42,429 bases of DNA, taken from a phage. Shown one piece after another: positions 5,496 through 33,611 of this stretch. Under the pieces are notes generated by a model that worked only from the letters and a program-made list of their open reading frames with translations, ran no database searches and was not told where the DNA came from. The stretch is taken from NCBI GenBank assembly GCA_012697465.1, contig GCA_012697465.1_4985.1; one strand, given 5' to 3'. Numbering within the stretch: position 1 is the first letter of the stretch; every line of letters starts with the position of its first letter. Both the position numbers and the translations under genes were made by a program.

Positions 5496-5572
5496 TGGCG
5501 ACCCCTACAGGAATCGAACCTGTAACCTACAGCTTAGAAGGCTGTCGCTCTATCCGGTTGAGCTAAGGGGCC
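5496..5572 (-). tRNA. tRNA-Arg (anticodon UCU)
   Basis: 77-nt cloverleaf folded by hand on the minus strand: 7-bp acceptor stem, D arm, anticodon stem ACAGC/GCUGU with loop CUUCUAA, T arm ACAGG-UUCGAUU-CCUGU, encoded CCA end. Confidence 0.8.
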
Positions 5573-5616
5573 GTGTAATTATGTGGCGTGATTCGCGGTT
5601 AAGGTTTTGCACTACC

Positions 5617-5640
5617 GTACCCTAAACCATACCCTAAACC
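5617..5640 (+). repeat. Tandem direct repeats (G/A)TACCCTAAACC x2, candidate integrase arm-type sites
   Basis: Two adjacent 12-mers between tRNA and int; a third copy plus a partial copy at 5841-5860. Confidence 0.4.
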
Positions 5641-5792: not shown

Positions 5793-5840
5793 CCCGGCTA
5801 AGTGTTTGCGTTCAGATCCTGTTTTGACTTGTGCCGAACC

Positions 5841-5860
5841 GTACCCTAAACCGTACCCCA
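5841..5860 (+). repeat. GTACCCTAAACC plus partial copy GTACCCCA just upstream of int
   Basis: Same 12-mer as at 5617-5640, 17 nt before the int ATG. Confidence 0.4.
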
Positions 5861-5876
5861 ATTCGAGGCATAAGCC

Positions 5877-7088
5877 ATGCTGACAGAACGCCAGATACAG
5901 GCGGCCATGCGCGCCGTGACCAGTGAAACAGTGTTGAACGATGGGGCCGCAGGACGTGGCAGCGGAAGCCTGCGCCTGCGCATTCGTGCCGGTGCAAAAG
6001 GGCCGAACGCTACCTGGCAGGCCGTCTGGTGGAACGCCGGAAAACAGACCAGTAAGGCGCTTGGCCGCTACCCGGATTTGAGCCTGGCCGACGCGCGCCG
6101 GAAGTATGAAACCGAAGTGCGCGACGTGCTGACGGCTGGCCGTGACCCAAACGCAGTGGTTGCAATGGCCGAAACCCCGACCATTGAAAAATTGTTCCAG
6201 TCTTACATCCAGTACCTGCGCGACAAAGAGACGGCGACCACCCACACATCAGAACACCTGCTGCTGACCGGCAAATACAACGCCGCTGATTTGCTTGGCC
6301 GCAACACCATTGCGTCAACCATCGAACCTGCCGACATCGCCAACGTGCTGGCCAAAGGCGTGAAGCGTGGCGCACGCCGAACCACCGACATGCAGCGCAC
6401 CGCCATGATGGCCGCATTTAATTGGGCGATGAAATCGACACACGATTACACGCAGGAAAACCGCATGGATTGGGGGCTGAAATATAACCCTGTTGCAGCC
6501 GTTCCGCGCGACCAGGCAGCCAACCGCACGCTGGATAGAAACCTGTCAGCGGAGGAAATGAAACACGTATGGGATAACGCGCCGGAACAAAGCGGCGACG
6601 TGATGCGCCTGGTGATGTGCACCGGCCAGCGCGTGATTGAAGTCATGCGCATAGCTGGTGCTGACGTGGACCTGAAAGCCAGGCTGTGGACGATGCCAGC
6701 CAGGAAAACAAAGGGCCGCAAGCAAACCCACATGGTGCCGCTGACCACGCAGGCGGTGGACATCCTGGCCACGCTGATTGACCTGTACGGTGACGGTTAC
6801 CTGTTCCCTGCCCGCGCTGGCGCTAAGGGTGACATTATCGGAATCCCAAGCGTCAGCCGTGGTGCCAGCCGCATGGCAGGCATTAAGCCGTTCACCCCGC
6901 GCGACCTGCGCCGCACCTGGAAGTCACGCGCCGGTGACGCTGGCATTGACAGGTTCACGCGTGACCTTATCCAGCAGCACGCGCAGACTGACACCGGCAG
7001 CAAACATTATGACCGCTTTGACTACCTGCCGCAGATGCGTGACGCGATGACCAAATGGGAAGCCTGGCTGGCTGACGCGCTGAAATAA
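5877..7088 (+). CDS. int: Tyrosine site-specific integrase (P4-type)
   Basis: 403 aa; N-terminal arm-binding-like region (GSGSLRLRIRAGAKG...WQAVWW...YPDLSLADAR), catalytic-domain motifs TGQRVIEV, RDLRRTW, and C-terminal H...HYDRFDY...WEAWL tail; next to a tRNA gene. Confidence 0.85.
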   Translation: MLTERQIQAAMRAVTSETVLNDGAAGRGSGSLRLRIRAGAKGPNATWQAVWWNAGKQTSKALGRYPDLSLADARRKYETEVRDVLTAGRDPNAVVAMAETPTIEKLFQSYIQYLRDKETATTHTSEHLLLTGKYNAADLLGRNTIASTIEPADIANVLAKGVKRGARRTTDMQRTAMMAAFNWAMKSTHDYTQENRMDWGLKYNPVAAVPRDQAANRTLDRNLSAEEMKHVWDNAPEQSGDVMRLVMCTGQRVIEVMRIAGADVDLKARLWTMPARKTKGRKQTHMVPLTTQAVDILATLIDLYGDGYLFPARAGAKGDIIGIPSVSRGASRMAGIKPFTPRDLRRTWKSRAGDAGIDRFTRDLIQQHAQTDTGSKHYDRFDYLPQMRDAMTKWEAWLADALK

Positions 7089-8814: not shown

Positions 8815-9223
8815 GTTCTGCCACCGTGCATTTTGGATGGTGGAAGCCGTCCTGGTGCTGGCACACAGGGCAGCAATCGCGCTGCTGTTCGTTGTCGTTA
8901 CCAGCTACCGGCTGGCGGTGACGTTCCAGCCAGATAACTGCGCCAGCCAGGTAGTTGATTGCGCCTAACAATTCGCGCACTGCGGCGTCAACTTGGCCAC
9001 GGTTGGCCATGCCCTGCGCTTCTTCGGATTTCTTATCCGCTTGGCCCAAAATGAAGCCAACGCCACGGCGGTCACCGATGGCCTGCATAGGCTGCTGGTG
9101 GAATGGCTTGTCATCAGCGTGACGTTCTGCGCCTTTGCCTGTTGCGGCCTGGTCAAAGGCGCGTTCCAGTACATCAGCCAGACGTTCATAACCTTTAACA
9201 TCTTTCATTGTCGTTTGCCCCAA
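8807..9223 (-). CDS. Hypothetical protein
   Basis: 138-aa ORF in the early-left operon; start may be the internal ATG (MKDVKGY); weak resemblance to all-alpha NTP-pyrophosphohydrolase proteins not trusted. Confidence 0.4.
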   Translation of the reverse strand: MGQTTMKDVKGYERLADVLERAFDQAATGKGAERHADDKPFHQQPMQAIGDRRGVGFILGQADKKSEEAQGMANRGQVDAAVRELLGAINYLAGAVIWLERHRQPVAGNDNEQQRDCCPVCQHQDGFHHPKCTVAEHG

Positions 9224-9416
9224 TCATGTGTTTTGCTTCATACGCTTCCACGCTGTTGATGGAGTAGCGAACGCGTGAGCCAAATTTTGTATAGGCTGGC
9301 CCTTTGCCTTTGTTGCGCCAGTTCGCCAGGGTTCCGGTGGTAACTGCGCCATTCCAGCGCAGAACCAGTTCCTGTGGCGTCAGATACGTGCTTTGTTTCT
9401 GTGCCAGTTGTGCCAT
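9195..9416 (-). CDS. Small HTH DNA-binding protein (excisionase/AlpA-like, putative)
   Basis: 73 aa; helix-turn-helix-like LTPQELVLRWNGAVTTGTLANWR segment; could be excisionase or early regulator. Confidence 0.4.
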   Translation of the reverse strand: MAQLAQKQSTYLTPQELVLRWNGAVTTGTLANWRNKGKGPAYTKFGSRVRYSINSVEAYEAKHMIGANDNERC

Positions 9417-10446: not shown

Positions 10447-11589
10447 TTAAGCCGCACCAATCAGGTGGGCGTTTTTGTTCGCGTGCCACGCTGGCAGGCT
10501 GATGGTCTGGATTTTGTCACCGTAGCCAGGCCATTCACCTGTGCGCACGCATTCTGCATAAACGCGCAAATCATGCTGGTACTGAGCGCGGCCAATTTCT
10601 ACGCCTTCGCTATCCAGTACATAAACACCAACTGCGTAAGGCGGTTTTTTCTCAACGGCGATAAACGCAAAGTGTTTAGGATAACCACGCCAGAAATCAG
10701 GGCGGCAGCGGCACAGAACGCCGGTCACCGGATCAGTCCAGTAAACTGATAATTCTGCTTTGCCTTCCTGCGGAGGATTGCATTTTCCCTGTTCCAACGC
10801 CAGGCGCGTGCCGTCCATGTAGTATGCGTGTTGCACATCATAGCGCCAGTTGGCTATTGATTTTGCAAACCCTTCCGGGCTGGCATCTTCGGTGGTTTTC
10901 AAGTCACCAATGATGTCTTTGACGTGGTGCAGGATAGCGAACGCAGCCTGGTGATTCATTACCGCGTCACGCATGGCAAAAATTTGTTCAAACGCTTCCG
11001 GTGACAGCACTTTGCGTTCGCTGTTATTCCGCTGCCATTCTTCCAGTACGTCTGACCACAGTGTGACTTCCACGCCGTTTTCGCGCAGCAGGTTGGCCAG
11101 TTCATGACGGCTGCCGCTGGTAGACAGTTTGCCAGGACGGTCAACATTCAACTGGTTGATGATTTCTTTCAGGTCTGGCGCTTTCATCGCGTTAAGCTGT
11201 TCAGTAGTCCAGGTTTCAACAGGCTGGTTTTCCAGGATGCGTTCAACCAGTTCGCCTTTGTTGCCACCAGTCAGCAACTTAGGCAGGCGGCCTTCGTTCA
11301 GCTTGTTGACCATTTCCACCAGCACTTCGCGGTCATCAATAGCATCAGGCACATCAGAACGTCGCAGCGCCAGGCAATAGGTTTTTGCGAATTCTTCCGG
11401 TTCAAGAATTGCCATATGCACAGCCGTGCCGATTTCCTGTGCTGGTGTTGGCGTACGGTCATTAGCAGCAGTCACAACAGCGTTGTAGTGCATCGGGCTG
11501 CGGTGCACCAAATCCAGGCCAGACTTACTGATGCCTGGGCCGCCGTGGTATTCAGCGTTTGGAATGCCTTCGTAAACTCCTGGTTTCAT
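10447..11589 (-). CDS. PD-(D/E)XK-type exonuclease (exodeoxyribonuclease VIII-like domain)
   Basis: N-terminus MKPGVYEGIPNAEYHGGPGISKSGLDL is characteristic of prophage exonuclease VIII-like nuclease domain proteins; first gene of the leftward operon. Confidence 0.55.
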   Translation of the reverse strand: MKPGVYEGIPNAEYHGGPGISKSGLDLVHRSPMHYNAVVTAANDRTPTPAQEIGTAVHMAILEPEEFAKTYCLALRRSDVPDAIDDREVLVEMVNKLNEGRLPKLLTGGNKGELVERILENQPVETWTTEQLNAMKAPDLKEIINQLNVDRPGKLSTSGSRHELANLLRENGVEVTLWSDVLEEWQRNNSERKVLSPEAFEQIFAMRDAVMNHQAAFAILHHVKDIIGDLKTTEDASPEGFAKSIANWRYDVQHAYYMDGTRLALEQGKCNPPQEGKAELSVYWTDPVTGVLCRCRPDFWRGYPKHFAFIAVEKKPPYAVGVYVLDSEGVEIGRAQYQHDLRVYAECVRTGEWPGYGDKIQTISLPAWHANKNAHLIGAA

Positions 11590-11861
11590 TCGTTACCTCG
11601 CAATTATTATTCAACGTGACTTCCGATTAACTGCGGTGAATTATGGCTGACGTGTTGTTATACTGTCAACTTCTTTATAACTAACATTGTTTAGATCAGC
11701 GTCACGCGGCCTGATCAACAAACCTTAGCTGTACATCAGCCATGCGTTTTTTGCACATCGCGGTTTGATTGACGTCAATGACCATTACTACTGGTTGCAA
11801 CTTCGCCACGTAGTAACATACAATTGCGAATACTTTAAATGATGGCGAATGAACGATAATT
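11590..11861. promoter_or_regulatory. Divergent early control region (leftward recombination operon / rightward replication operon)
   Basis: 272-bp AT-rich non-coding gap between divergently oriented operons; candidate -35/-10 hexamers (TTGACG, TTGCAA...TACAAT); no repressor gene adjacent. Confidence 0.35.
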
Positions 11862-13280
11862 ATGGGCGTAATACTTAGGGACTATCAATCCGACATTATC
11901 AATAGGGCGCGCCTTTCTATGCGGCGCAACCGGCGCGTGTTATTGCAGGCACCAACAGGCGCGGGGAAAACTGCGCTGGCGTCATTCATGGCTGGGGAAG
12001 CATCGGCCAAAGGCCAGCAGGTGTGGTTTATTTGCCACCGCGCTGAACTGGTATTACAGACCAGTTTGACATTCAGGAAGTTCGGCATTGACCACGGATT
12101 TATTGCCGCAGGCTATCCCATGAACCTGCGCGCCGGGGTGCAGGTGTGCAGCATCGACACCCTGAAAAACCGCCTGCACACCCTGCCCGCCCCTAAGCTG
12201 GCCATCATGGACGAAGCGCACCACTGTGGCGCGGCGGGTTGGGCGCGCGTCAACGCCTGGCTGTTTGAGAATGGCGCGTATGTCATCGGCCTGTCAGCTA
12301 CGCCAAAGCGCCTGGACGGCACCGGCCTGGATGACCACTTTGACGACATCGTGTTAGGGCCATCTGTGCGATGGCTGATGGATAACGGCCACCTGTCTGA
12401 CTATCGCATGTTCTGCCCGGACATCCCTGACATGAAGGGTGTACGCAAGCAGATGGGCGATTTCTCAAAAGGCGAAACCGCCGAGAAGATGGATAAGCCG
12501 AAACTAACCGGCAACATCATCAGCCACTGGCTGAAATACGCCAAAGGCATGAAAACGGTTGGCTTCGCGGTCAACATAGCGCACAGCCGCCACTTAACGC
12601 AGGCATTCGTTGATTCAGGCATCCGTGCCGCACACCTGGACGGCGGCACCGATAAGGCGGAACGTAAGCGCATCATCCAGGACTACGCCAACGACAACCT
12701 GGATGTGATTTTCAACGTGTCGCTGTTCGGTGAAGGTTTCGACCTGTCAGCCATCGCACAAACTGACGTGACGATTGACTGCCTGATTGACGCGCAGCCT
12801 ACACAATCATTGTCGCTGGTGTTGCAGAAAGATGGGCGCGTGTTGCGACCGTCCAAAGGCAAAACCGCCATCATTCTGGACCACGCAGGAAATGCGCTGC
12901 GTCATGGCTTCCCTGACGACGAACGCGAATGGTCACTGGCTGGCGATGACAGCGGCAGCAAATCCAGCAGTGCTGGTGGCCCACCGCCGCCAGTCATTTG
13001 CAAAGGCTGTTTCAACGCCATCCGCCGACCACTGCCGCCGAAGTGCCCGCACTGCCAGAAGGAACTACAGGCCGAAGCCAGAGAAATTGAAGTGGCAGAA
13101 GGCGAACTGCGCGAAATGGACGAACGCGCCAAAGAAAGCCTGCGCGCGAAGATGAAACGCGAGGAAGATGCTTGCAAGGATATTGGCGCACTGACCGCCC
13201 TGGCGATGAAACGCGGGCTGCCGAACCCATCAGGGTGGGCCATAGCGAAGATGGGCGGAAGAAGATTTAAGCGTAAATAG
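11862..13280 (+). CDS. Superfamily-2 DEAH-box helicase with C-terminal zinc ribbon
   Basis: Motif I APTGAGKT, motif II DEAHH, motif III SAT, motif VI QKDGRVLRP; CKGC...CPHC ribbon near the C-terminus. Confidence 0.8.
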   Translation: MGVILRDYQSDIINRARLSMRRNRRVLLQAPTGAGKTALASFMAGEASAKGQQVWFICHRAELVLQTSLTFRKFGIDHGFIAAGYPMNLRAGVQVCSIDTLKNRLHTLPAPKLAIMDEAHHCGAAGWARVNAWLFENGAYVIGLSATPKRLDGTGLDDHFDDIVLGPSVRWLMDNGHLSDYRMFCPDIPDMKGVRKQMGDFSKGETAEKMDKPKLTGNIISHWLKYAKGMKTVGFAVNIAHSRHLTQAFVDSGIRAAHLDGGTDKAERKRIIQDYANDNLDVIFNVSLFGEGFDLSAIAQTDVTIDCLIDAQPTQSLSLVLQKDGRVLRPSKGKTAIILDHAGNALRHGFPDDEREWSLAGDDSGSKSSSAGGPPPPVICKGCFNAIRRPLPPKCPHCQKELQAEAREIEVAEGELREMDERAKESLRAKMKREEDACKDIGALTALAMKRGLPNPSGWAIAKMGGRRFKRK

Positions 13281-13287
13281 CTTATGT

Positions 13288-13328
13288 ATTAATAGGTATA
13301 ACCGATTAGCGATATTTACCAAAGTAAA
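13288..13328 (+). promoter_or_regulatory. Conserved ~40-bp promoter/operator-like element, copy A (ATTAATAGGTATAACCGATTA...TTTACCAAAGTAAA)
   Basis: Near-identical element at 19131-19169; contains dyad TTTAC-N4-GTAAA followed 2-3 bp later by a -10-like hexamer (TATAGT). Confidence 0.5.
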
Positions 13329-13384
13329 GGTATAGTTATTTCACCGGCACACAGGTGCCCAACAACAAAAGAGGAAACACCCAA

Positions 13385-14053
13385 ATGGCACGTTTAACCG
13401 CTGCAATCCGTGATGGCATCATTGCCAACGCAATCAAAACCAAAGACTTTGCAGGCCGTGATTTGGCTATCGTTCAAAAGCGCGCTGATTTTGCTGAACG
13501 TCTGCGCCTGTTCATCCTGGGTGAATATGGGCTGACCGATGCGCGACTGGATGAAATTAAGGCGCAGGTTGATGAACTGGCAAAAGAAGTTAAGCACGAA
13601 GGCTCTAGCTATGTGCGAGTAGATTTTAGTGGCTGCGTATACCGACTGGACGTTAACTTATCTGGCCAGTCTCGTTACATTTACCGTAACGGTGTGAGCA
13701 ACGATAAACGATATGAGCCGCTATTCAATACATCGGTTGCTGAATACGACGAAACAAAGTATTCACCTCACACCAGCGAATGTGACTTCACAGTGCGCGA
13801 TCCTAAATGGCGCGAAGAACTGGACGCCATTGACCTGGAGGCCGCGCAACTGCGTGAAGAATACAACACGCTGAAATCAACGCTACGGGCCACAATTTCA
13901 GCATTCACGACTGTGGAAAAACTCATGGAAGCATGGCCAGACGTGAAAGAACTGATTCCAGAAACTACGCCGATCGCTAAACAGCCAGGCACTGGCATTG
14001 CGCTGTCAGTAGCTGACCTGAACGCGCTGTGCGGAATTCCTACTGGCAAATAA
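13385..14053 (+). CDS. Hypothetical protein
   Basis: ATG at 13385 preceded by AAGAGGA; the track ORF begins earlier at a GTG (13355); no motif recognised. Confidence 0.5.
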   Translation: MARLTAAIRDGIIANAIKTKDFAGRDLAIVQKRADFAERLRLFILGEYGLTDARLDEIKAQVDELAKEVKHEGSSYVRVDFSGCVYRLDVNLSGQSRYIYRNGVSNDKRYEPLFNTSVAEYDETKYSPHTSECDFTVRDPKWREELDAIDLEAAQLREEYNTLKSTLRATISAFTTVEKLMEAWPDVKELIPETTPIAKQPGTGIALSVADLNALCGIPTGK

Positions 14054-14095
14054 CAACCATGCCCGGTGCGCCGGGCAATTCTCACAGGTGACACC

Positions 14096-14488
14096 ATGAA
14101 AAAACTTATCATCGCCGCTTTCATCCTGGCGGCCACCAGCGCAGCAGCACAGGCGAGCGAATGCCTGCCAGGAATGGATCCGGCAAAGGACAACTGCCAG
14201 GTGACGGAAGAACAGGAACCGGCACCACAGCCGGAATTACAGGACGTGGACCAGGTTTACTACTGCCTTGAACTGCAAAAAATCGCCGTCAAAATAGCTG
14301 AACTGCGTGACAAAGGGGCAGGCGAACAGGGCGTGGTCACCATGCTGGCTAACAACAACCAGAACCGCATCATTTGGGTGGCGCGCCAGGTGTTCTGGCC
14401 GCAATCGACTGACCTGTCACCAAAACAAATTGGCTTGCGTGTGTGGATGCGCTGCAATTCCGGCGAGTATCCGGGGGTAAACTTCTGA
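14096..14488 (+). CDS. Secreted/periplasmic small protein with signal peptide
   Basis: MKKLIIAAFILAATSAAAQA signal peptide (AQA-SE cleavage context) and four Cys in the mature part. Confidence 0.5.
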   Translation: MKKLIIAAFILAATSAAAQASECLPGMDPAKDNCQVTEEQEPAPQPELQDVDQVYYCLELQKIAVKIAELRDKGAGEQGVVTMLANNNQNRIIWVARQVFWPQSTDLSPKQIGLRVWMRCNSGEYPGVNF

Positions 14489-14898
14489 TGGCTAACAAAG
14501 AACACGCGCTACAGAACGCAATCCGCAACGCCCTGGCTGGCCGCTGCCTGCTGTTCCGCGCCAACGTGGGCAAGGCGTACACCAGTAATGACATTGTGAA
14601 GGTTCCACGCCAGATGCCGGTTGTGATGGGTCCGCGTGACGTGCTGCTGAAAAACGCCAGGCCATTTGACACCGGGCTGCCACCAGGGTTTTCCGACCTG
14701 TTCGGAATGGTCAGCGTGGAAATCACGCATGACATGGTTGGGCAGAAAGTGGCTATCTTCACCGGCCTGGAAGTCAAAGACGGTGCCCGCGTGTCACCGT
14801 TGCAGCGAAACTTCATCAACGCGGTGAACGATAACGGGGGCCGCGCCGGTGTTGTGCGGTCAGTGGCTGACGCTGAAAAACTGGTGTTCGGCAAATGA
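14488..14898 (+). CDS. VRR-NUC domain nuclease
   Basis: PD-(D/E)XK core GFSDL...GLEVKDG...Q motif arrangement typical of VRR-NUC; start overlaps the upstream stop (TGATG). Confidence 0.6.
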   Translation: MANKEHALQNAIRNALAGRCLLFRANVGKAYTSNDIVKVPRQMPVVMGPRDVLLKNARPFDTGLPPGFSDLFGMVSVEITHDMVGQKVAIFTGLEVKDGARVSPLQRNFINAVNDNGGRAGVVRSVADAEKLVFGK

Positions 14899-14973
14899 GC
14901 ATAAAACAGATAGCATCCGACGCACTGCGCTACAGCGTAGACACCGGACGATCAATGATGGAGTGGCTAAACC

Positions 14974-15138
14974 ATGATGACAATCGAAAGCATTCGCAGA
15001 CTGTTTGCAGAAGCACTGGTGACCAGGAACCACATCACGTTCCTGGCAGCAAAAACGGCAATGTGGAATCTGAACCGTTACGGCATGTTAACGGCGCTTG
15101 AAGTGGAAAACCTGAAACAGACGTGGGGTGTTGAATGA
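14974..15138 (+). CDS. Hypothetical small protein (54 aa; alternative to track ORF 14895-15101)
   Basis: Helical-looking translation MMTIESIRRLFAEALV...; stop overlaps the next start (ATGA); below the 60-aa cutoff of the track. Confidence 0.3.
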   Translation: MMTIESIRRLFAEALVTRNHITFLAAKTAMWNLNRYGMLTALEVENLKQTWGVE

Positions 15139-15371
15139 ATATTTTGAAAGTGGCAATGCAGCGGCTGGTTGACGCCTGGAAGGTATCAGCCAGGGAAATC
15201 AGCCTGGGTTTTCAAATGGCGCTGGTGCGCGCTGGATGGCGTCCAAAGGTGCGGTCAATGCAAGTGGTGCTGGACTATCCGAAGCCAGGGCCACGCCGTT
15301 CACGATTCACCGGCATTGCAGCTATGCGCCGAAAGGCACGGAAGGAGCGCAACAGGAGGGCGGCCGCATGA
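15135..15371 (+). CDS. Hypothetical small basic protein
   Basis: 78-aa ORF, translationally coupled on both sides. Confidence 0.35.
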   Translation: MNILKVAMQRLVDAWKVSAREISLGFQMALVRAGWRPKVRSMQVVLDYPKPGPRRSRFTGIAAMRRKARKERNRRAAA

Positions 15372-15592
15372 ACCCGGTAGACTTCATCAAAAAACAAGTC
15401 ATGGCCGAACTGGTGAAGCAAGGCGCATCACCTGGCACAGCGCAGCACGCGGCTGACTACGCGGCGCAACAGTACCGCACCACGTCAACTATCGGCAAAG
15501 ACCCTTTCGCTGAACTGATACGCCTGGCAGGCGCAATGGCCATGAAGCACCAGGCCGGTTTCCGTTTCGTGATGCCGAAATCATCAAGATGA
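15368..15592 (+). CDS. Hypothetical small protein
   Basis: Internal ATG (MNPVDFIKK...) overlapping the upstream stop (ATGA); 74 aa. Confidence 0.35.
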   Translation: MNPVDFIKKQVMAELVKQGASPGTAQHAADYAAQQYRTTSTIGKDPFAELIRLAGAMAMKHQAGFRFVMPKSSR

Positions 15593-15626
15593 CGTAAGAT
15601 TATTTCAAAAGATATTTACTTTAGGA

Positions 15627-15652
15627 AATGCGCCCTGTACTATGGGCGCATT
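15627..15652. promoter_or_regulatory. Perfect palindrome AATGCGCCC-N8-GGGCGCATT (candidate operator)
   Basis: 9-bp arms, 8-bp spacer, 20 nt upstream of the small HTH gene start. Confidence 0.4.
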
Positions 15653-15672
15653 GTTATTACGAGGCTATTACT

Positions 15673-15861
15673 ATGGACGAAAGGACCGAACGACTTCACG
15701 ACATTATGGCTAAACATGGCTTAACCTGCCGCGATGTTGGCCGTTTACTTGGCCGCACTGAACAAACGGTGCTTATCTGGCGCTGTAAGGGCGGGAAAGT
15801 CATTCCGACCCACCAGCTTGAATTGCTTGAGTATAAATTGTCCGGGGGTAACAAATTATGA
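15673..15861 (+). CDS. Small HTH DNA-binding protein (Cro-like regulator, putative)
   Basis: 62 aa from ATG with GAGG RBS; HTH-like LTCRDVGRLLGRTEQTVLIWR. Confidence 0.45.
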   Translation: MDERTERLHDIMAKHGLTCRDVGRLLGRTEQTVLIWRCKGGKVIPTHQLELLEYKLSGGNKL

Positions 15862-16556
15862 GTAAAGGAATTATTATCTGCCTGTGTGACATCACTGGCG
15901 TAATGGCAAAGCCGTGGGTTGACGCAGGTTATGAAGCCGTTCTGGTTGACCCGCAGCACCCGGAAGGCGTTCACGTTGATGGCGCAATCACCCGCGTTGG
16001 CCATATTATCGACCATCCAGCTACGTGGGATATTTTGCGCCGCACCGTGTCCACTGGTCACGTTGTTTTTGTTATGGGGTTCCCTCCATGCACTGATTTG
16101 GCGGTAAGCGGTGCTCGCTGGTTTAGCACGAAACGTGAGGCTGACCCGGCTTTCCAGTTCAAAGCAATGCACGTTGTGTGGCAGTGCCAGATTATTGGCG
16201 AGATGGCCGGTGTGCCGTGGGCCGTTGAAAACCCGGTAAGCCAGATTAGCAGCCTGTGGCGTAAACCCGACTACGCTTTCAACCCGGATGACTTTACTGG
16301 ATATTGCGCAAACGACAATTACACAAAGAAAACATGCCTTTGGACTGGTGGCGGTTTCGTTATGCCGGAAGCGTTCCGCGATGAAACGTTAGGCGCGCCA
16401 GATGACAGAATCCATAAATGCCCACCTGGTCCAGAGCGTGCAAACATCCGCAGCGCAACGCCATTGGGCTTCGCCATTGCTGTTTTCAACGCCAACGCGC
16501 CTCACCTGCGCCACGCTAACGACAATGAACCGTCAAGCGGTGAGGCTGTCGCGTGA
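15858..16556 (+). CDS. Compact DNA (cytosine-5)-methyltransferase-like protein
   Basis: GFPPC (motif IV-like with catalytic Cys), AVENP (ENV motif VI-like), C-terminal RSATPLGFAIAVF (motif X-like); only 232 aa. Confidence 0.45.
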   Translation: MSKGIIICLCDITGVMAKPWVDAGYEAVLVDPQHPEGVHVDGAITRVGHIIDHPATWDILRRTVSTGHVVFVMGFPPCTDLAVSGARWFSTKREADPAFQFKAMHVVWQCQIIGEMAGVPWAVENPVSQISSLWRKPDYAFNPDDFTGYCANDNYTKKTCLWTGGGFVMPEAFRDETLGAPDDRIHKCPPGPERANIRSATPLGFAIAVFNANAPHLRHANDNEPSSGEAVA

Positions 16557-16783
16557 ACGCCTGTACCTGGCAGCCCACCACAGTGACGCTGCACGATGGG
16601 CGCGAAGTGTTGAGCGATAGCCGGGAATGGTTGCTGGAATGCGAAGCCAAATACGTTCTGAATCAGCCAACCATTGAAGCACGGCGCACCCTGCTGGCAG
16701 CGATAGAAAAACGGCGCGGAGCAACAGCCCGCGAAGAACTAGAACAACGCGCACTGGCCATATGGCGCGCTAACAGGCCATAA
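16553..16783 (+). CDS. Hypothetical protein
   Basis: 76-aa ORF with non-ATG start overlapping the upstream stop. Confidence 0.3.
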   Translation: MNACTWQPTTVTLHDGREVLSDSREWLLECEAKYVLNQPTIEARRTLLAAIEKRRGATAREELEQRALAIWRANRP

Positions 16784-16795
16784 AATCGGGGTTCT

Positions 16796-19099
16796 ATGAG
16801 TGCACAACAAAACTATAAGGATTTGACTGAACAGGAAATTGCAGAAGCACTTTCCTACATTGACGCCGGTTGCGACCGTGAAACATGGGTGCGCATGGCT
16901 ATGGCGGTCAAATCGGAATTAGGCGACGGCGGTTTCACCGTCTGGAATGACTGGTCACGCCAGTCTGACAAGTACAACAGCAAAGACGCGCGCGACACCT
17001 GGAAATCAGTGAAGCGTCACGGCGGCATTGGCATTGGCACCCTGATTGGTGAGGCGCAGTTATTTGGCTTTTCGCTGAACGATAACGAACGCACACCGAT
17101 TTCTGCCGAAGAGATTCAGGCGCGTAAAAAACGCCGCGAAGAAGAAGAGCGCAAAGAACAACAACTGCGCGCAGAACGTATGGCGCAGGCAGCAGAGCAG
17201 GCGCGCAACATATGGGAATCAGCTACCGAACTGGAAGGAGATGAACACCCATACCTGAAACGCAAACTTGTTAAATCATTCGGGCTGCGCATCGGTCGTT
17301 TTCGTAACCAGGATGGCGCGCTACTGGTGCCAATCAGAAACATTGACGGGCAGATCACCAGCCTGCAAGCCATATTCCAGAACGAAAACCCACAGCTAGG
17401 GCGTGACCGTGATTACCTTCCTGGTGGTCAGAAACGTGGGTGCTTCCACGTCATTGGCAACAAACCAACTGGTGCAAATCCGGTTATTGTCATCTGTGAA
17501 GGCTATTCCACCGGTGCATCCATTCACATGTCTACCGGTTACTGCGTGGTGGTCGCGTTCGATGCCGGTAACGTGCCGACCGTAGCCAAGTTGATGCGTC
17601 AGCAGTTCGGACGCGCAACAATTGTTGTGGCAGCCGATAACGACCAGTGGCACGAAGATGGCAAGCAAAATGATGGTGTTCACTACGCGCGCCAGGCATC
17701 AATCACCACTGGTGGCCTGCTGGCGGTTCCTAAATTTACGCGCCTTAGCGATAAGCCTACCGACTTCAATGACCTGCACGTACTGGAAGGTTTAAACGCT
17801 GTAAGCAACCAGATTAACGCGGTGATACCGGAACCAGTGAATGATAACTTTCTGCCACTTGATGCCAGCGTAAACCCGTTCATGTTCCCGCACATGAGCC
17901 ACCAGCAAAAACCGCTTAACACGTGGGAAAACCTGGAATGGCTGCTTACCCAGTACGGCATCAAATCGCGTTACAACGAAATCAGCAAAGATGTGGTAGT
18001 TACGATCCCCGGCAAGGATTACGGCAACGACGCATCAGCTAACAGCGCATTGACTGAAATTGTCAGCCTGTGTGCCCGCAACGGTATGCCGTCTGGTTCC
18101 TGTGCTGAGTATGTAAAACTGATTGCCATGAGCAATCGCTACAACCCGGCATCTGAATTTATCACCGCAAAACCGTGGGATGGTGTGAGCCGCATTTATG
18201 ACCTGTGCGATACACTGGAAACGGCGGAAGGTTTTGACCGCAGCCTGGTGTTGATGATGGTTCGCCGCTGGTTGATTTCCGCCGTTGCTGCCGCGATGCA
18301 GCCAACTGGGTTCTACTCAAAAGGCGTTCTGGTGCTACAGGGTGAACAGTCGCTGGGGAAAACAGCATGGTTTCGCTCGCTGGTGCCGCCTACACTGCGC
18401 GAACTGATTAAGGTAGGGGCAACAATCGACCCGGCAAACAAAGATAGCGTCAGCAGCGCAATAGGCCGCTGGATGGTGGAGCTTGGCGAACTGGATGCAA
18501 CTTTCCGTAAATCGGACATCGCACGCCTTAAATCATTCATCAGCCAGGACCGTGACGAAATCCGCAGACCTTATGACCGGCTTGAATCGACCTACCAGCG
18601 CAGAACCGTGTTTTTTGCGTCAGTGAACCCGAAACACTTCCTGGCGGATGACACTGGGAACGTTCGCTGGTGGACTATCCCGGTAACGCGCATCAACTAC
18701 GAACACGATATTGATATGCAGCAGGTTTGGGCTGAAGTGGCGCAGTTGTACCGAGAAGGCGAACGCTGGTGGATGAACGCAGAAGAAGAAGCCATGCTGG
18801 AACAAGTTAACAAGGAACACGAAGCTATTGACCCGGTAGAGGAAATGATACTGATGCGTTACGAGTGGGGTTGCGACAGACCAGCAGCCTATACCGACCG
18901 TACAGCAACGCAGGTGCTGCAAGAAATTGGCTACGACAAGCCGAACAAGGCACAGACTACACATTGTGCAGGGGTGCTGAGAAAACTCACTGGTAAGCCT
19001 GCCAGGAAGTCTGGAAGCAATCGCCTGTTCAGCATTCCGCCGAAGGTGCCAAACCCTGACCACCGGCGATTCAATGACGATGATGACCGGCCATTTTGA
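16796..19099 (+). CDS. DNA primase (PriCT-2 + Toprim + VirE-like P-loop domain), P4-alpha-like replication protein
   Basis: N-terminal PriCT-like segment (DRETWVRMAMAV...FTVWNDW), Toprim core (VIVICEGYSTG...AADND), C-terminal Walker A QGEQSLGKT. Confidence 0.75.
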   Translation: MSAQQNYKDLTEQEIAEALSYIDAGCDRETWVRMAMAVKSELGDGGFTVWNDWSRQSDKYNSKDARDTWKSVKRHGGIGIGTLIGEAQLFGFSLNDNERTPISAEEIQARKKRREEEERKEQQLRAERMAQAAEQARNIWESATELEGDEHPYLKRKLVKSFGLRIGRFRNQDGALLVPIRNIDGQITSLQAIFQNENPQLGRDRDYLPGGQKRGCFHVIGNKPTGANPVIVICEGYSTGASIHMSTGYCVVVAFDAGNVPTVAKLMRQQFGRATIVVAADNDQWHEDGKQNDGVHYARQASITTGGLLAVPKFTRLSDKPTDFNDLHVLEGLNAVSNQINAVIPEPVNDNFLPLDASVNPFMFPHMSHQQKPLNTWENLEWLLTQYGIKSRYNEISKDVVVTIPGKDYGNDASANSALTEIVSLCARNGMPSGSCAEYVKLIAMSNRYNPASEFITAKPWDGVSRIYDLCDTLETAEGFDRSLVLMMVRRWLISAVAAAMQPTGFYSKGVLVLQGEQSLGKTAWFRSLVPPTLRELIKVGATIDPANKDSVSSAIGRWMVELGELDATFRKSDIARLKSFISQDRDEIRRPYDRLESTYQRRTVFFASVNPKHFLADDTGNVRWWTIPVTRINYEHDIDMQQVWAEVAQLYREGERWWMNAEEEAMLEQVNKEHEAIDPVEEMILMRYEWGCDRPAAYTDRTATQVLQEIGYDKPNKAQTTHCAGVLRKLTGKPARKSGSNRLFSIPPKVPNPDHRRFNDDDDRPF

Positions 19100-19104
19100 T
19101 TAAT

Positions 19105-19130
19105 AACCCGCTTCGGCGGGTTTTGTTTTT
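19105..19130 (+). terminator. Rho-independent terminator after primase
   Basis: CCCGC-TTCG-GCGGG hairpin followed by TTTTGTTTTT. Confidence 0.55.
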
Positions 19131-19169
19131 ATTGATAGGTATAAGCGATTATGTGTTTACCAAAGTAAA
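19131..19169 (+). promoter_or_regulatory. Conserved ~40-bp promoter/operator-like element, copy B (ATTGATAGGTATAAGCGATTA...TTTACCAAAGTAAA)
   Basis: Matches 13288-13328 at about 36 positions; followed by TAATAT -10-like hexamer. Confidence 0.5.
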
Positions 19170-19219
19170 TACTAATATGTGTTTAAGAAGTTAAATGCAT
19201 CAAAACGAGGTAATGCGAA

Positions 19220-20122
19220 ATGAAACAAGTAACGATTGACACCGTGCGCGAGCGCATAGCGGAACTGGAAATGGTCAACAGTCACGGTGAACTGTCACTG
19301 CGCGGCGAATTTGAATTGGCGTGTTTGCGGCAGTTGGCGGCATTACAAGAGCGAGTTGCGGAACTGGAAGAAAACGACCGCGAACAAATGGATGAACTGT
19401 ACCGAAGAAATGCGACGATTCACCGGCTGCAACAGCAGGCATCGCAGGTAGTGACGGTCGCGCCGGTAGTGCCGGATGAAATGACACCGGAAATGATGCG
19501 CGCAGTCCAGTTGAATAGCGAACTTGGTGCGTATGCAGTGTCAAACTTATCTGGCGCATATGACCTGTTCTCCGAATTCTGGAAGGTGGCCCGCAGCGCC
19601 GCCATGCTCAACCAGGCGCACCAGGAACCAGACACAGACAACACCGCGCAGCAGTTCGAGGCGTTGGCCACCAGCGCGCAGCGTGAACCAGTGGCTGCGG
19701 TGAAGCACTACACCGGGAATGAATACCCCACTCTGAAATTTGCGCAGAATGAATGGTGCGTATGCGGTGACCGTGATGATGCGCAGGAACTGGCTGACGC
19801 CATCAACGCACTGGCCACCAGAGCGGGAAGCGGCAAGAGTGAACACATGTTGAATGCGGAACGGATAGCCAGGGAAGCGCAAGCACTGTCTGACAGGCTG
19901 AACGCCACCAACGCGGTGCATCCCCGCGTTAGTGGTTGGTCAGAGCGTCAGCAAAAGGTGATTTCTTATGCGCTTTGGCGTTTCAGTTGCGCCGCTTATC
20001 AAAAGGCCAATCAGGCTGCACAGACAAATAACAAAGACATGTTTGATCGCTTTATTCGTGACGCACGATGCGCCGAGGAAATACGCGAGGAATTCACCAG
20101 CGCGTGGGTCGGCAAGCTATGA
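19220..20122 (+). CDS. Hypothetical protein (coiled-coil N-terminus)
   Basis: 300-aa ORF downstream of conserved element copy B; no motif recognised. Confidence 0.5.
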   Translation: MKQVTIDTVRERIAELEMVNSHGELSLRGEFELACLRQLAALQERVAELEENDREQMDELYRRNATIHRLQQQASQVVTVAPVVPDEMTPEMMRAVQLNSELGAYAVSNLSGAYDLFSEFWKVARSAAMLNQAHQEPDTDNTAQQFEALATSAQREPVAAVKHYTGNEYPTLKFAQNEWCVCGDRDDAQELADAINALATRAGSGKSEHMLNAERIAREAQALSDRLNATNAVHPRVSGWSERQQKVISYALWRFSCAAYQKANQAAQTNNKDMFDRFIRDARCAEEIREEFTSAWVGKL

Positions 20123-20436
20123 GCCTGGCAACCGATATTCTGTGGCACGCTTTTGTTACGCAGCATAAACGGAAGTCGAAGCCAAAACCAGCACCAGTGG
20201 TGGCAAAACCAAAACCGGCAGTCACAGCAATCAGCAACCGCAACCTGCACCTGGCGCGCGTTCCATATTGTCAAAGGCGTGATGAAATGTGGCAGACGCG
20301 ATTGATTGATGGAAATCGGAAGATAACATTGGGAAGATTCCACACACTGCAACGCGCACAGATAGCATTGCGACTTTGGCACCTGTGGAAGAAAAGAGGA
20401 TATACCGACATCCCAACCGGACCAAACCGCGATTGA
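20119..20436 (+). CDS. AP2-like DNA-binding domain protein (putative)
   Basis: ATG overlapping upstream stop; MWQTRLIDGNRKITLGRFHTLQRAQIALRLW resembles the AP2/ERF-type beta-sheet DNA-binding fold. Confidence 0.35.
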   Translation: MSLATDILWHAFVTQHKRKSKPKPAPVVAKPKPAVTAISNRNLHLARVPYCQRRDEMWQTRLIDGNRKITLGRFHTLQRAQIALRLWHLWKKRGYTDIPTGPNRD

Positions 20437-20440
20437 AAAG

Positions 20441-20467
20441 TAACCGCCTTCGGGCGGTTTTTTCTTT
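20441..20467 (+). terminator. Rho-independent terminator
   Basis: AACCGCC-TTCG-GGCGGTT hairpin followed by TTTTTTCTTTGG. Confidence 0.6.
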
Positions 20468-20523
20468 GGTTGATTTAACAATATTAACCACTTTTTCTGG
20501 TAAGTAATTGTCATACAAATGCT

Positions 20524-20800
20524 ATTTGGGACTATCTATGGTCCCAAATGGGACTATCTTTTTTTGAGCTGGTCCCACGTTAAGTTACTGATATTAATAA
20601 CGAAAACACCATTTGGGACTATAAGGGACTATCTTTTTATAAAACATTATTTATAAATAAAGGGGGAGTAATAGTATATATAGGGAAATTTGGTCCCACT
20701 TGTCCCAAATCAGCCAGAAAATGGCGTTTTCTTTAAGTTAATCAATAGCATAACAGTGGGACTATCTTTTGCTGAGATAGTCCCAAGTTAGTCCCTTGTT
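20524..20800. repeat. Iteron-like array: about 11 direct and inverted copies of TGGGAC(T/C)ATCT around an AT-rich core
   Basis: Copies at about 20528, 20538(inv), 20550, 20571(inv), 20615, 20625, 20692(inv), 20702(inv), 20758, 20775(inv), 20791(inv); includes two perfect inverted-repeat pairs; no ORF. Confidence 0.65.
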
Positions 20801-20865
20801 ACTTTCGTATATTCTGTGTGCTACAATCCCCATATTGACTTTTATTTATAATTATTGGGGGTTAC

Positions 20866-21300
20866 ATGGAATTACCGCGCACTGTGCAGGAAATAGCTGA
20901 CGTTATTGGCCGTGAACGTGCGCTTTTTCTTATCGGACAACTGCCAAAACTGTGGGTGCCATCGCAGCAATACCACAAAGTCATCCTGTATGTACCAAAG
21001 CGGATTCGACCCAATGACCCACTGGTGAAAATCCTGGGGTGGCATGATTCCAGCAAGATGGTGCAGCACTTCGGAGGTGAAATGCTTCACCCGGCTAATT
21101 GTGAATACATTTACCGCCATTTCATTCACCGCAGCATTAAGCGGATGCACAGCGAAGGAATGGACGCAAAAGCTATTGCGGAACTTCTTGACGTGTCAGA
21201 GCGCACCGTTAAGCGCCATTGCACTGACAAACCCCACAAAGACACATCACCTGCAAATGACAACCATCAGCACCGACTACTAATGACTACGGGGCAATAA
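20866..21300 (+). CDS. Mor/C-family transcriptional activator (putative late-gene activator)
   Basis: 144 aa; central ...ILYVPK... segment and C-terminal HTH AIAELLDVSERTVKRH; directly upstream of the lysis and packaging genes. Confidence 0.4.
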   Translation: MELPRTVQEIADVIGRERALFLIGQLPKLWVPSQQYHKVILYVPKRIRPNDPLVKILGWHDSSKMVQHFGGEMLHPANCEYIYRHFIHRSIKRMHSEGMDAKAIAELLDVSERTVKRHCTDKPHKDTSPANDNHQHRLLMTTGQ

Positions 21301-21903: not shown

Positions 21904-22392
21904 ATGGCTGTTATTACTCCACAACAGGCAGGCGGTAAGAACGTTTGCGCGTTCCTGGATATGATCGCCTACAGCGAAGGCACTGACAACGGCAGACAGC
22001 AAACCAATGACCACGGCTATGACGTGCTGGTTGGTGGTGGTCTGTTCACCGGTTATGCAGACCATCCGCGCAAACTGGTGGCACTGCCTAAGCTGGGCAT
22101 CAAATCCACGGCTGCTGGCCGTTATCAGCTTTTGAGCCGCTATTATGACGCCTACAAAAAGCAATTGGGCCTGAAAGATTTCAGCCCGCTGTCACAGGAT
22201 TTGATTGCAATTCAACAAATCCGTGAACGCCGAGCCTTGCCACTTATTCAGGCCGGTCAGTTTGAACAGGCAGTGCGGCAGGTTCGCAACATTTGGGCTT
22301 CCCTGCCTGGTGCTGGTTATGGGCAGCACGAACAGAAGATTGCCAACCTGCTGGCAGCGTATCGCAACGCCGGTGGAACGTTGGCGGCATAA
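21904..22392 (+). CDS. Endolysin, lambda R-like lytic transglycosylase
   Basis: Colinear with lambda R as I remember it: AFLDMIAYSEGTDNGRQ...HGYDV(L/I)VGG...FT.Y.DHPRKLV...GRYQLLSR..DAY(K/R)KQLGLKDFSP.SQD...NIWASLPGAGYGQ. Confidence 0.85.
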   Translation: MAVITPQQAGGKNVCAFLDMIAYSEGTDNGRQQTNDHGYDVLVGGGLFTGYADHPRKLVALPKLGIKSTAAGRYQLLSRYYDAYKKQLGLKDFSPLSQDLIAIQQIRERRALPLIQAGQFEQAVRQVRNIWASLPGAGYGQHEQKIANLLAAYRNAGGTLAA

Positions 22393-22910
22393 TGGATAAA
22401 TACGCTACTCCTGTGAAACTCATTGTGGCGATAATCATCGCCTTTGCGCTGGTAGCCTTTGGGTATGTATCAGGGTTCAGCAAATCAGATCGTGAATGGC
22501 AGGCCAAATGGTCTGCCCGCGACGCTGCTGACGCACAGGCACACCAGCAATTTACCGAACAACAACGCCGCATAGAACTACAGCGGCAGGGGGCTATTGA
22601 TGCAATTCATGAACAAGCACAGCAAGACATTGCTACAGCGCAGCGCAATGCTGCCATTGCTGCTGCTGAGTCTAAGCGCTTGCAAGACGGTATCGCAGGC
22701 GCCATCACCAGACTACAGGCAGATAGCGGCCATTCCAGCACTGCCATCAGCAGCAAGGCAAGGGCCAGCACCAGCAGCCTGCTTGCCGAGTTGTTCAGAG
22801 AGATTGACGCAGCTGCGGGCATCTATGCAGCAGAGGCTGACAGGGCAAGAGCCGCAGGGCTGACGTGCGAACGGGCTTACGACGCAGTGAGAGCGACATC
22901 ACAACAATGA
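22392..22910 (+). CDS. Rz-like inner-membrane spanin
   Basis: N-terminal TM segment then long coiled-coil periplasmic domain; start overlaps the endolysin stop (TAATG). Confidence 0.6.
   Translation: MDKYATPVKLIVAIIIAFALVAFGYVSGFSKSDREWQAKWSARDAADAQAHQQFTEQQRRIELQRQGAIDAIHEQAQQDIATAQRNAAIAAAESKRLQDGIAGAITRLQADSGHSSTAISSKARASTSSLLAELFREIDAAAGIYAAEADRARAAGLTCERAYDAVRATSQQ
22609..22863 (+). CDS. Rz1-like outer-membrane lipoprotein spanin embedded in the +1 frame of Rz
   Basis: Signal peptide with lipobox LSLSAC then Pro-rich mature part; entirely inside the Rz gene in another frame; start codon choice uncertain (22609 or 22648). Confidence 0.5.
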   Translation: MNKHSKTLLQRSAMLPLLLLSLSACKTVSQAPSPDYRQIAAIPALPSAARQGPAPAACLPSCSERLTQLRASMQQRLTGQEPQG

Positions 22911-33275: not shown

Positions 33276-33611
33276 AAAGGAACAAACGCGGCTACAGGCG
33301 CGCCGCTGGATGGCATTGACCATCTGCGCCAATCCATACGTGACATACTCACGACGCCAATTGGCACGCGAGTGATGCGCCGCGACTACGGCAGCCGGTT
33401 ACCGTACCTGGTTGATGCACCGATGAACCGCAGCACGTTGCTGGACCTGTACGCAGCGACTGCGGAAGCACTGGAAGCCTGGGAGCCACGCATCAGCGTG
33501 CAGCAGGTGACAGCAACATCAGCAGAACCAGGACGCGTGGAATTGTCCATTACCGGCGAATACCTGCCAGACGGCAAACAAATAACAATTGACGGCATAG
33601 TGGTGACATAA
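33273..33611 (+). CDS. Baseplate assembly protein W (P2 gpW / gp25-like)
   Basis: 112 aa; gpW/GPW_gp25 family pattern (IRDILTTPIGTRVMRRDYGSRL...). Confidence 0.8.
   Translation: MKGTNAATGAPLDGIDHLRQSIRDILTTPIGTRVMRRDYGSRLPYLVDAPMNRSTLLDLYAATAEALEAWEPRISVQQVTATSAEPGRVELSITGEYLPDGKQITIDGIVVT

Follow-up and report, generated by a model that had tools for sequence, protein, structure and literature searches.

We analysed a 42,429-nucleotide stretch of phage DNA (GenBank assembly GCA_012697465.1, contig GCA_012697465.1_4985.1; hereafter the window, with positions counted from its first letter), in which an element of about 40 bp occurs twice, at 13288-13328 and 19131-19169. Judged from sequence and conservation, each copy is best explained as a promoter of the sigma-70 type that contains an operator and stands at the head of a slot in which accessory genes are exchanged. 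Computation revealed the repeat, its conservation, a coordinated switch of the dyad within it and the association of that switch with the alleles of one small helix-turn-helix (HTH) protein. We hold with moderate confidence the model that combines these results: sigma-70 promoters with a weak -35 region, whose spacer would contain the operator for a Cro-like protein that regulates its own gene and probably acts as a repressor.

Each copy has two conserved parts. Box A is a 21-nt sequence with the consensus ATTRATAGGTATAASCGATTA, present as ATTAATAGGTATAACCGATTA in copy 1 (13288-13308, plus strand) and as ATTGATAGGTATAAGCGATTA in copy 2 (19131-19151, plus strand). The second part is the 14-mer dyad TTTACCAAAGTAAA (TTTAC-CAAA-GTAAA), whose only exact matches in the window are two predicted operators: operator 1 at 13315-13328, which fills the 19-bp spacer of copy 1, and operator 2 at 19156-19169, within the 18-bp spacer of copy 2. 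The copies are alike at 19 of 21 box A positions and all 14 dyad positions, and the linker between box A and the dyad measures 6 nt in copy 1 and 4 nt in copy 2. A search of both strands for box A, allowing up to three mismatches, returned these two matches in the window and none in 100 dinucleotide-preserving shuffles, confirming the repeat that an initial annotation of the sequence had reported. Both copies also follow replication genes, as that annotation had it. Copy 1 begins 8 nt past the stop codon (13278-13280) of a helicase gene of the superfamily 2 DEAD/ResIII type (Pfam matches on homologues), and directly upstream of copy 2 stands the intrinsic terminator of the primase gene (19105-19122, plus strand), which is conserved in all relatives. 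From the end of the element to the next ATG there are 56 nt in copy 1 (ATG at 13385) and 50 nt in copy 2 (ATG at 19220).

The promoter anatomy is similar in both copies. A -10 hexamer follows the dyad after 2 nt in copy 1 (TATAGT, 13331-13336, plus strand) and after 3 nt in copy 2 (TAATAT, 19173-19178, plus strand), each with the A at position 2 and the T at position 6 that are looked for in a sigma-70 promoter. The -35-like hexamers are TTAGCG in copy 1 (13306-13311, at the 3' end of box A, 19 bp upstream of the -10) and TTATGT in copy 2 (19149-19154, 18 bp upstream), and neither copy has a hexamer close to TTGACA at 16-18 bp. The predicted start is A13343 in copy 1 and lies near A19185 in copy 2, with a ribosome-binding site (RBS) at 13370-13375 (AGAGGA) and 19207-19210 (GAGG), respectively; the leader of copy 1 contains the hairpin GGCAC-ACAG-GTGCC (13346-13359). 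Promoters were scored with a crude sigma-70 matrix made from textbook base frequencies with our own parameters, and ranked over the positions of the window. Copy 1 fell within the top 0.19% and copy 2 within the top 0.98%, with good -10 terms and negative -35 terms, in agreement with the earlier description of a -10-like hexamer lacking a good -35; the main rightward promoter ranked in the top 0.01%. Since a strong terminator directly precedes copy 2, this copy needs a promoter of its own. Other promoter readings of the same sequence (TTGATA of box A as a -35, TATAAA of box A as a -10, TTTACC as a -35, or promoters on the reverse strand) were rejected, as none had a suitably spaced partner hexamer.

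By DNA identity, the region is closest to Escherichia phage vB_EcoM_ECO1230-10 (94%), followed by Bas97, ep3, PT1, ECOO78, Alux-21, KA2-1 and Arya (80-89%). These are GenBank members of the Jilinvirus group, and the window represents a Jilinvirus-like myophage; in the taxonomy dump, Aryavirus is now a separate sister genus of Jilinvirus, both within the subfamily Iiscvirinae. Phages of the group are small myophages with a layout of the temperate type.

Conservation was assessed in 13 enteric relatives, namely ECO1230-10, Bas97, ep3, PT1, KA2-1, Arya and seven metagenomic relatives. By a position-weight scan, every one of these genomes (13/13) has two strong copies of box A and no more, always past the helicase stop codon and past the primase terminator. 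The suspicion that the similarity might be confined to low-complexity AT sequence is ruled out by this result, the element being kept at both places in all the relatives examined. Between phages, copies from corresponding places are more alike than are the two copies of a single genome: in four E. coli and Salmonella members (the window, ECO1230-10, ep3 and PT1) the post-helicase copies read ATTAATAGG...AACCGATTG/A-GCGATA, and the sequence of post-primase copies is ATTGATAGG...AAACGATTA. This indicates that the duplication is old and that selection, not homogenisation, has maintained both copies.

Conservation within the element is uneven. Box A is nearly invariant, as seen in the orthologous copies of the 13 relatives, the linker of 4-6 nt is free, the dyad is conserved, and the TAnnnT hexamer is fixed in position and variable in sequence. 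About 30 aligned copies from 20 phages share one layout: box A, a weak -35-like TTRGNN, a spacer of 18-19 bp containing the dyad, TAnnnT (or GAAAAT/GATAAT) 2-4 nt past the dyad, a CA start about 7 nt past the -10, and a leader with an RBS. Past the CA start, the copies diverge into unrelated leaders and genes. The persistence of TAnnnT, the CA start and the RBS leader across these copies, though the cargo changes, supports the promoter-like character first proposed for the element. Some orthologous copies have a better -35 (TTGGAA, TTGGCA or TTGAAG at 18 bp).

More distant phages retain the design. Pseudomonas phage Persinger has a diverged homologous pair at the same two places, reading GATAG-N9-ATTGGATG-GTTTAC-N4-GKAAAC-N3-4-GAAAAT, with the starts of GATAG and ATTRG 14 bp apart as in the enteric phages. 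In a clade found via the HTH protein (L057, L059 and L064), a -35 of TTGCGT or TTGTGT is followed by the dyad TTTNC-N4-GGAAA in a spacer of exactly 17 bp, a -10 of GAAAAT, GATAAT or TATGAT and a CA start; there are three to four such promoters there, in addition to the HTH gene's own. Other clades carry TTCAC/GTAAA or ATTAC/GTAAT dyads. The variants (TTTAC/GTAAA, TTTCC/GGAAA, TTTAA/TTAAA and ATTAC/GTAAT) keep both their symmetry and their place between -35 and -10, and we read the dyad from this pattern as a symmetric site. Wider searches added little: of the 24 loci that matched a degenerate DNA pattern in IMG/VR, 21 lay in unrelated contigs and were due to chance, the HTH alignment found just one short contig in a metagenome scan, and a genome-collection scan with the primase returned only distant prophages lacking the element.

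A search for further copies, as the initial annotation had proposed, revealed a third dyad. With TTTACNNNNGTAAA and up to one mismatch, four matches were obtained in the window against 0.73 expected, three of them being the two elements and the predicted operator 3, TTTACTTTAGGAAA (15615-15628), which has no box A. It overlaps the -35 (TTTACT) of a near-consensus promoter, TTTACT-17-TACTAT (-10 TACTAT at 15638-15643), which ranks in the top 0.03% by the matrix and belongs to a 62-residue Cro/Xre-type HTH gene (15673-15861, plus strand; phrog_14341, E = 7.9e-17), the putative source of the dyad binder. The PHROG family of this protein is annotated as "transcriptional repressor". The start at ATG 15673 has an RBS and fits the length of most homologues (59-66 amino acids); a longer reading frame from 15628 was rejected, as it would begin within the promoter.

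The surroundings of the HTH gene have features of their own. The TACTAT hexamer sits in the loop of a conserved hairpin, GCGCCC-N8-GGGCGC (15630-15649), whose stem shows compensating changes in relatives (GGTCCT/AGGACC in Arya, GTGCC/GGCAC in L074 and GACGTCCA.../...TGGACGTC in the L057 clade); it may weakly terminate transcription arriving from upstream and have a promoter embedded in it. Downstream, the HTH stop codon overlaps (15858-15861) the start of a DNA methyltransferase gene (15858-16556, phrog_757), a layout resembling that of a controller protein and its methylase. The pairing is optional: the window, ECO1230-10, KA2-1 and some metagenomic relatives have the phrog_757 methyltransferase gene, which Bas97, ep3, PT1 and Arya lack at this position.

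The link between the HTH protein and the dyads emerged from phages in which the dyad sequence has changed. In Arya, both elements and the third site read TTTAA-N4-TTAAA. We retrieved genomes with variant HTH proteins and compared dyad class with HTH allele. All three dyads are of the TTTAC type in nine genomes, whose HTH proteins are of the EQ or KK type, and of the TTTAA type in five (Arya, L069, L071, L072 and L074), where the predicted recognition helix begins with VS (Arya, L069 and L071), IS (L072) or PS (L074). The third dyad becomes TTTAAATTCTTAAA in 5/5 genomes of the TTTAA class. In most loci, the pattern TTTA[AC]-N4-[GT][GT]AAA occurs nowhere else, the exceptions being an extra dyad (copy 2 of the window and L073) and one stray match in L069.

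We then compared 14 early-region proteins with enough orthologues, calling an alignment column diagnostic if it has no residue common to both genome groups. The HTH protein has 17 such columns out of 65 (26%), and its highest between-group identity is 0.59. The other 13 proteins have 0-2 diagnostic columns each (at most 0.3%), with between-group identities of up to 0.83-1.0; they include both genes flanking the HTH gene, the Xis-like HTH_17 protein, the helicase, the primase and the late activator. The three dyad sites are spread over 6 kb, and the HTH allele has never parted from the operator class despite recombination of the surrounding genes. This association is the main evidence from which we infer that the HTH protein binds the dyads. 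The initial annotation had proposed factor-dependent promoters sharing one regulator and had listed HTH 15673-15861 among the candidates. The part concerning one regulator is supported, as dyad type and allele are co-inherited without exception and the HTH protein is the sole one of the 14 whose alleles split with dyad class; the reading of the dyad as an activator site is not supported, for reasons given below.

Other binders were considered and set aside. The late activator, the Xis-like HTH_17 protein, the primase and neighbouring small proteins failed the allele-association comparison. CI is absent from the window and from several element-bearing relatives, and no such dyad lies next to cI where that gene is present. 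A one-residue code for the specificity (Q for TTTAC, S for TTTAA) was also rejected, since KK-type and distant AS-type proteins go with TTTAC dyads.

Copy 2 carries one more dyad, the TTTAA-class TTTAAGAAGTTAAA at 19182-19195, which lies over the predicted start and is identical to the post-primase operator of Arya; L073 has the same arrangement. It is either a recombination remnant or a site of cross-regulation.

Symmetric changes in the dyad would also preserve an RNA stem, so a signal at the RNA level has to be weighed: a lambda nut-like site (box A plus a boxB hairpin), or an antiterminator loading site of the Q/AlpA type in the spacer. The two copies do lie in the rightward transcription unit, a stem of 5 bp closed by a loop of 4 nt could arise from the dyad, and the binding elements of Q and AlpA are located between -35 and -10 (PMC9371919). 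Such loading sites need a pause element (PMC9371919), and no -10-like pause element was found past the predicted start of either copy. The hairpins are marginal (-1.0 and -2.6 kcal/mol), in the TTTAA class would be made of A-U pairs alone, and have loops that are not conserved. A strong terminator precedes copy 2, a promoter -35 is formed by the third dyad, and the associated protein is a 62-residue HTH of the DNA-binding type. Rfam at the gathering threshold (the window and two relatives), and at E up to 1 for the element, matched only a tRNA. An RNA-level function thus appears extremely improbable.

An AlphaFold model of the HTH protein (predicted local distance difference test score, pLDDT, of 90.6) contains four helices, with helix 3 (residues 30-37, EQTVLIWR) as the predicted recognition helix; the class difference between EQ and V/I/P-S concerns its first two residues. 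Foldseek matched the model to PDB structures of HipB, CapH, P22 c2, P22 Cro, C.BclI, C.EcoT38IS, Aca10 and HigA, with template modelling (TM) scores of 0.55-0.79 (P22 Cro: TM 0.60, 30% identity). The E-values of these matches were weak (at least 0.04), as expected for a protein of only 62 residues. Profile matches to Xre proteins of the PDB had E-values of 0.1-1, and family members matched Pfam HTH_23, HTH_31 and HTH_26. The modelled fold is lambda-repressor-like, of the Cro/Xre type.

One operator covers the -35 of the strong promoter that serves the HTH gene itself, those of both elements occupy the spacer, and in L071 one lies over the start. At that element of L071, box A is followed by non-dyad sequence, TACTAT and then TTTAAGAACTTAAA, with a TTTAA dyad at +4 to +17 as the sole operator. 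All three positions are typical of repression, and the one in L071 would fit nothing else. Repression is favoured because of the operator positions together with the Cro/Xre fold, and the same observations argue against the earlier reading of the dyad as an activator site and middle-gene switch. A dimer of the HTH protein would bind the dyads in both elements and the third dyad over its own -35, where, given operator position and protein fold, it would block RNA polymerase. It would in this way hold down its own operon (HTH, methyltransferase, DUF7696 protein and primase) and, on accumulating, shut down both accessory cassettes in the manner of Cro or Aca. Box A may compensate for the poor -35, either through an UP-like contact with the polymerase alpha subunit or as an activator site.

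The alternative closest to the initial annotation makes the elements activator-dependent delayed-early or "middle" promoters, at which the HTH protein in the over-long spacer, or a protein at box A, recruits or re-aligns RNA polymerase, and the HTH protein represses only its own promoter. The poor -35 and the spacers of 18-19 bp in enteric and Persinger-type copies speak for it, as does the strict conservation of box A at about -56 to -36, where class I/II activators and Mor/C-type proteins bind. Dual action is also seen in the C-proteins of restriction-modification systems, which have the same fold and work both as activators and as repressors. To our knowledge, activation from inside the spacer is known only for MerR-family proteins. 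The HTH protein (62 amino acids, Xre fold) is not of that family, whose members have a winged HTH plus a coiled coil, and no MerR-type protein tracks the dyad: the only MerR-group relative here, the HTH_17 protein (9195-9416), has no diagnostic column. MerR-type promoters have spacers of 19-20 bp with a centred dyad, compared with 18-19 bp in enteric and Persinger-type copies and 17 bp in the TTTCC clade. In that sister clade, the same dyad design sits in an optimal 17-bp spacer with a TTG -35, where no remodelling is needed, and L071 has its operator over the start site. Neither the alleles of the Mor-like activator nor those of the Xis-like HTH_17 protein track the element, and no protein was found to track box A. 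We regard this alternative as unlikely.

In the predicted promoter, box A extends from about -56 to -36. Its sequence is rich in A and T, contains an A-tract near -42, lacks dyad symmetry and ends in the -35-like TTRG. Because it is constant across HTH classes, the HTH protein does not read it, and we found no protein that varies together with it. It is unchanged in KA2-1 and Arya, where the late activators are only 57-58% identical to that of the window. In an informal comparison, none of the known host-factor sites (IHF, Fis, DnaA and sigma-28) fitted box A. An UP-like element and an activator site are both conceivable roles, and box A is the weakest part of the model. Because of box A and the poor -35, the factor dependence proposed in the initial annotation may still apply.

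Several points weigh against the repressor model. The core promoters are weak by the sigma-70 matrix (the ranks of 0.19% and 0.98% given above, with a negative -35 term), and a consensus promoter scan of the window called neither copy; for both reasons they may need a factor, which favours the first view of the element. Spacers of 18-19 bp also suit activation by spacer remodelling. Box A is far more strictly conserved than a typical UP element and is without a known binder. The switch from TTTAC to TTTAA may have arisen once, in which case the association rests on few independent events, and the distant L076, with a recognition helix starting AS, has TTTAC dyads, so there is no simple residue code. 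A literature search found no transcription start, binding or expression data for any phage of the group.

A positive role of the Xre-fold protein itself is also conceivable: bound in the spacer of promoters lacking a -35, perhaps together with a box A factor, it would activate the cassettes and repress its own promoter. We consider this quite unlikely. If true, it would amount to MerR-like spacer activation by a different fold, TTTAC and TTTAA would be regulatory "dialects", and hybrid promoters such as copy 2 of the window would let co-infecting phages cross-regulate each other's cassettes.

The genes behind the two copies vary. In the window, slot 1 begins with a gene for an Nmad5-domain protein (13385-14053, plus strand; PF18757, E = 6.7e-39; phrog_1965), which is found in only some relatives; other phages have other small genes there or a conserved GC-rich leader. 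Slot 2 holds genes for a 300-residue protein with an Ea22-like segment (19220-20122, plus strand) and a phrog_4947 protein (20068-20436, plus strand), followed by an intrinsic terminator (20442-20459, plus strand). Both first genes had been called uncharacterised, which still applies to the 300-residue protein, the other having at least a recognised domain. NCBIfam and PADLOC gave no meaningful match for the cargo proteins. In relatives, slot 2 contains a methyltransferase, an EaA protein, a dATP/dGTP pyrophosphohydrolase or small open reading frames, and its content differs in every relative. Cassette 2 is a terminator-promoter-genes-terminator unit (19105-19122 to 20442-20459), which corresponds to a moron with a predicted promoter. 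By this comparison the element appears as a fixed promoter in front of exchangeable genes.

The GC-rich leader follows the element in relatives L006 (37385-37575), L002 (about 36770-36900), L004 (about 22360-22480) and L005 (about 33560-33680), as well as in L069, L071 and L074. It begins with CATAGGGCGGCGGCAGGATGCAGCCGGAGAGGAGCAACGCAGGGGCTTGATCGTAGTGTCAGGATTCCCAACCGTGAGGCC, in Arya extends to about 190 nt ahead of the next gene, and is not present in the window; its slot is post-primase in some phages and post-helicase in others. No Rfam family matched the leader of a relative, even with E-values of up to 1 allowed. A function as a regulatory leader or as a non-coding RNA is conceivable.

Such mobility raises the question of whether the element is mainly a recombination linker at the edge of variable cassettes, with incidental promoter activity. 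This would account for cargo that differs behind both copies in nearly every relative, for one leader cassette shared between the two slots and for the hybrid-like copy 2 with operators of both classes. It leaves unexplained the invariant box A beside a variable linker, the symmetric dyad and the TAnnnT at a fixed distance, as well as the coordinated switch at the third site, which has no box A, and its link to the HTH allele. We judge a linker function very unlikely; recombination at the elements is better seen as a consequence of the conserved promoter.

The copies flank a replication gene cluster, and the phage encodes a VapE/D5-type primase and a ParB-like protein. Replication-origin or partition sites for the primase-helicase or the ParB-like protein, comparable to the paired ori and crr of phage P4, might accordingly be suspected. 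Each copy has a single 14-bp dyad and no iteron array, the primase shows two diagnostic columns in 767 residues (0.3% of alignment columns), and few TTTAA-class loci contain the ParB-like gene. A better origin candidate is available in an array of GGGACTAT at 20520-20800, and we give hardly any credence to an origin at the elements. The array has at least eight copies of GGGACTAT or its complement, with several inverted pairs (e.g., 20757-20786) and an adjoining AT-rich stretch. It lies between the terminator at 20442-20459 and a candidate promoter of the late activator (TTGTTA, 18 bp, TGcTACAAT; about 20797-20828), and one more copy occurs at the start of the helicase gene (11878-11885). The array is either an iteron-type origin or an operator array controlling the late activator.

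The initial annotation had also listed a Mor-like activator as a possible regulator of the element. This late activator (20866-21300), annotated in phrog_836 as a late transcriptional activator, has no diagnostic column with respect to dyad class, and its alleles track neither box A nor the dyad. They track a separate motif, GACAAACCCCAAGAAGA, with five copies on the plus strand at conserved late-region positions: 21226 (within the late-activator gene near its 3' end, before the lysis genes), 26176 (near the end of the large terminase gene), 28915 (in the head gene), 33223 (in an intergenic gap) and 38959 (directly past a terminator). At matching positions, the counterpart is GACAAGCCGCACGAAGA in KA2-1 and GACACCCCGCACGAAGA in Arya, whose diverged late activators were noted above. 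The GACAAACCCCAAGAAGA motif is probably the target of the Mor-like late activator and, as such, the real late switch.

Elsewhere, the window contains a lysogeny module part-way through decay. The cI-like repressor gene of Bas97, PT1 and Arya is missing, with no tblastn match, and the exonuclease and helicase genes, between which it would lie, are only 273 bp apart in the window (11589-11862). The integrase gene (5877-7088; 98% identity to that of Bas97) and a tRNA gene (5499-5572) are retained. Between them lie two 33-nt direct repeats rich in CCGTACCCTAAACC (5605-5637 and 5829-5861), which could be candidate integrase arm-type sites of attP. A decaying lysogeny module has been described for the group in the BASEL paper, which calls these phages poorly characterised (PMC11990801).

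Jilinvirus-type phages are therapy candidates and are included in the BASEL reference collection, and their gene regulation has not yet been described; a literature search found no paper on promoters or transcription in this group. Our analysis provides a testable regulatory map, in which one small Cro-like protein would have three to four operators that fall into two natural specificity classes, and late promoters would carry a separate motif. It also points to two fixed slots for the exchange of early accessory genes (nucleotide modification, methyltransferase, Ea22-like and deoxynucleoside triphosphate pyrophosphohydrolase), which would be a sensible place in which to look for counter-defence functions. 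The principle is not new, as small HTH repressors with dyad operators are textbook phage biology.

Among known systems, the Mor and C promoters of phage Mu resemble the element in that the -10 is good, a -35 is missing and conserved sequence lies at about -35 to -55, and an annotated late activator is encoded here as well. They differ in that the activator alleles of the present group track the five-copy late motif and in that box A has no dyad symmetry. Cassette 2 (19131-20459) resembles a moron in being bracketed by terminators, with its own predicted promoter and variable cargo. Classical morons come with a promoter of their own and are often active in the prophage, whereas the promoter here would be a conserved, phage-regulated fixture of the backbone behind which only the cargo is swapped. 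The stoperators of cluster A mycobacteriophages are likewise dispersed copies of a short operator for one phage repressor, with co-evolving specificity classes. They are asymmetric 13-mers that number in the dozens, lie inside transcription units and block elongation, in contrast to the three to four symmetric operators inside promoters predicted here.

Aca proteins and the C-proteins of restriction-modification systems are closer in protein type: small Xre-fold dimers on inverted repeats in or near a core promoter, which damp strong early expression and regulate themselves. The overlap of the HTH gene with the start of a methyltransferase gene in the window is a further likeness to the C-proteins. 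The cargo here lies outside the operon of the regulator, however, the methyltransferase is absent from several relatives that keep the HTH gene, and PADLOC did not indicate an anti-defence role for the cargo.

The likeness to lambdoid Cro proteins (434 and P22, with dyad operators of 14-18 bp) extends to the ~60-residue lambda-repressor-like HTH, the 14-bp operator of 5-4-5 architecture, as in phage 434, and the placement of operators inside core promoters. Here, the gene stands outside a CI/Cro switch, as a mid-operon gene with its own promoter, and its proposed targets are dispersed promoters of accessory cassettes. No such dyad lies between the leftward and rightward early genes, and the system is kept in the window although the CI gene has been deleted. 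As in the lambdoid immunity groups, the alleles of operator and protein change together.

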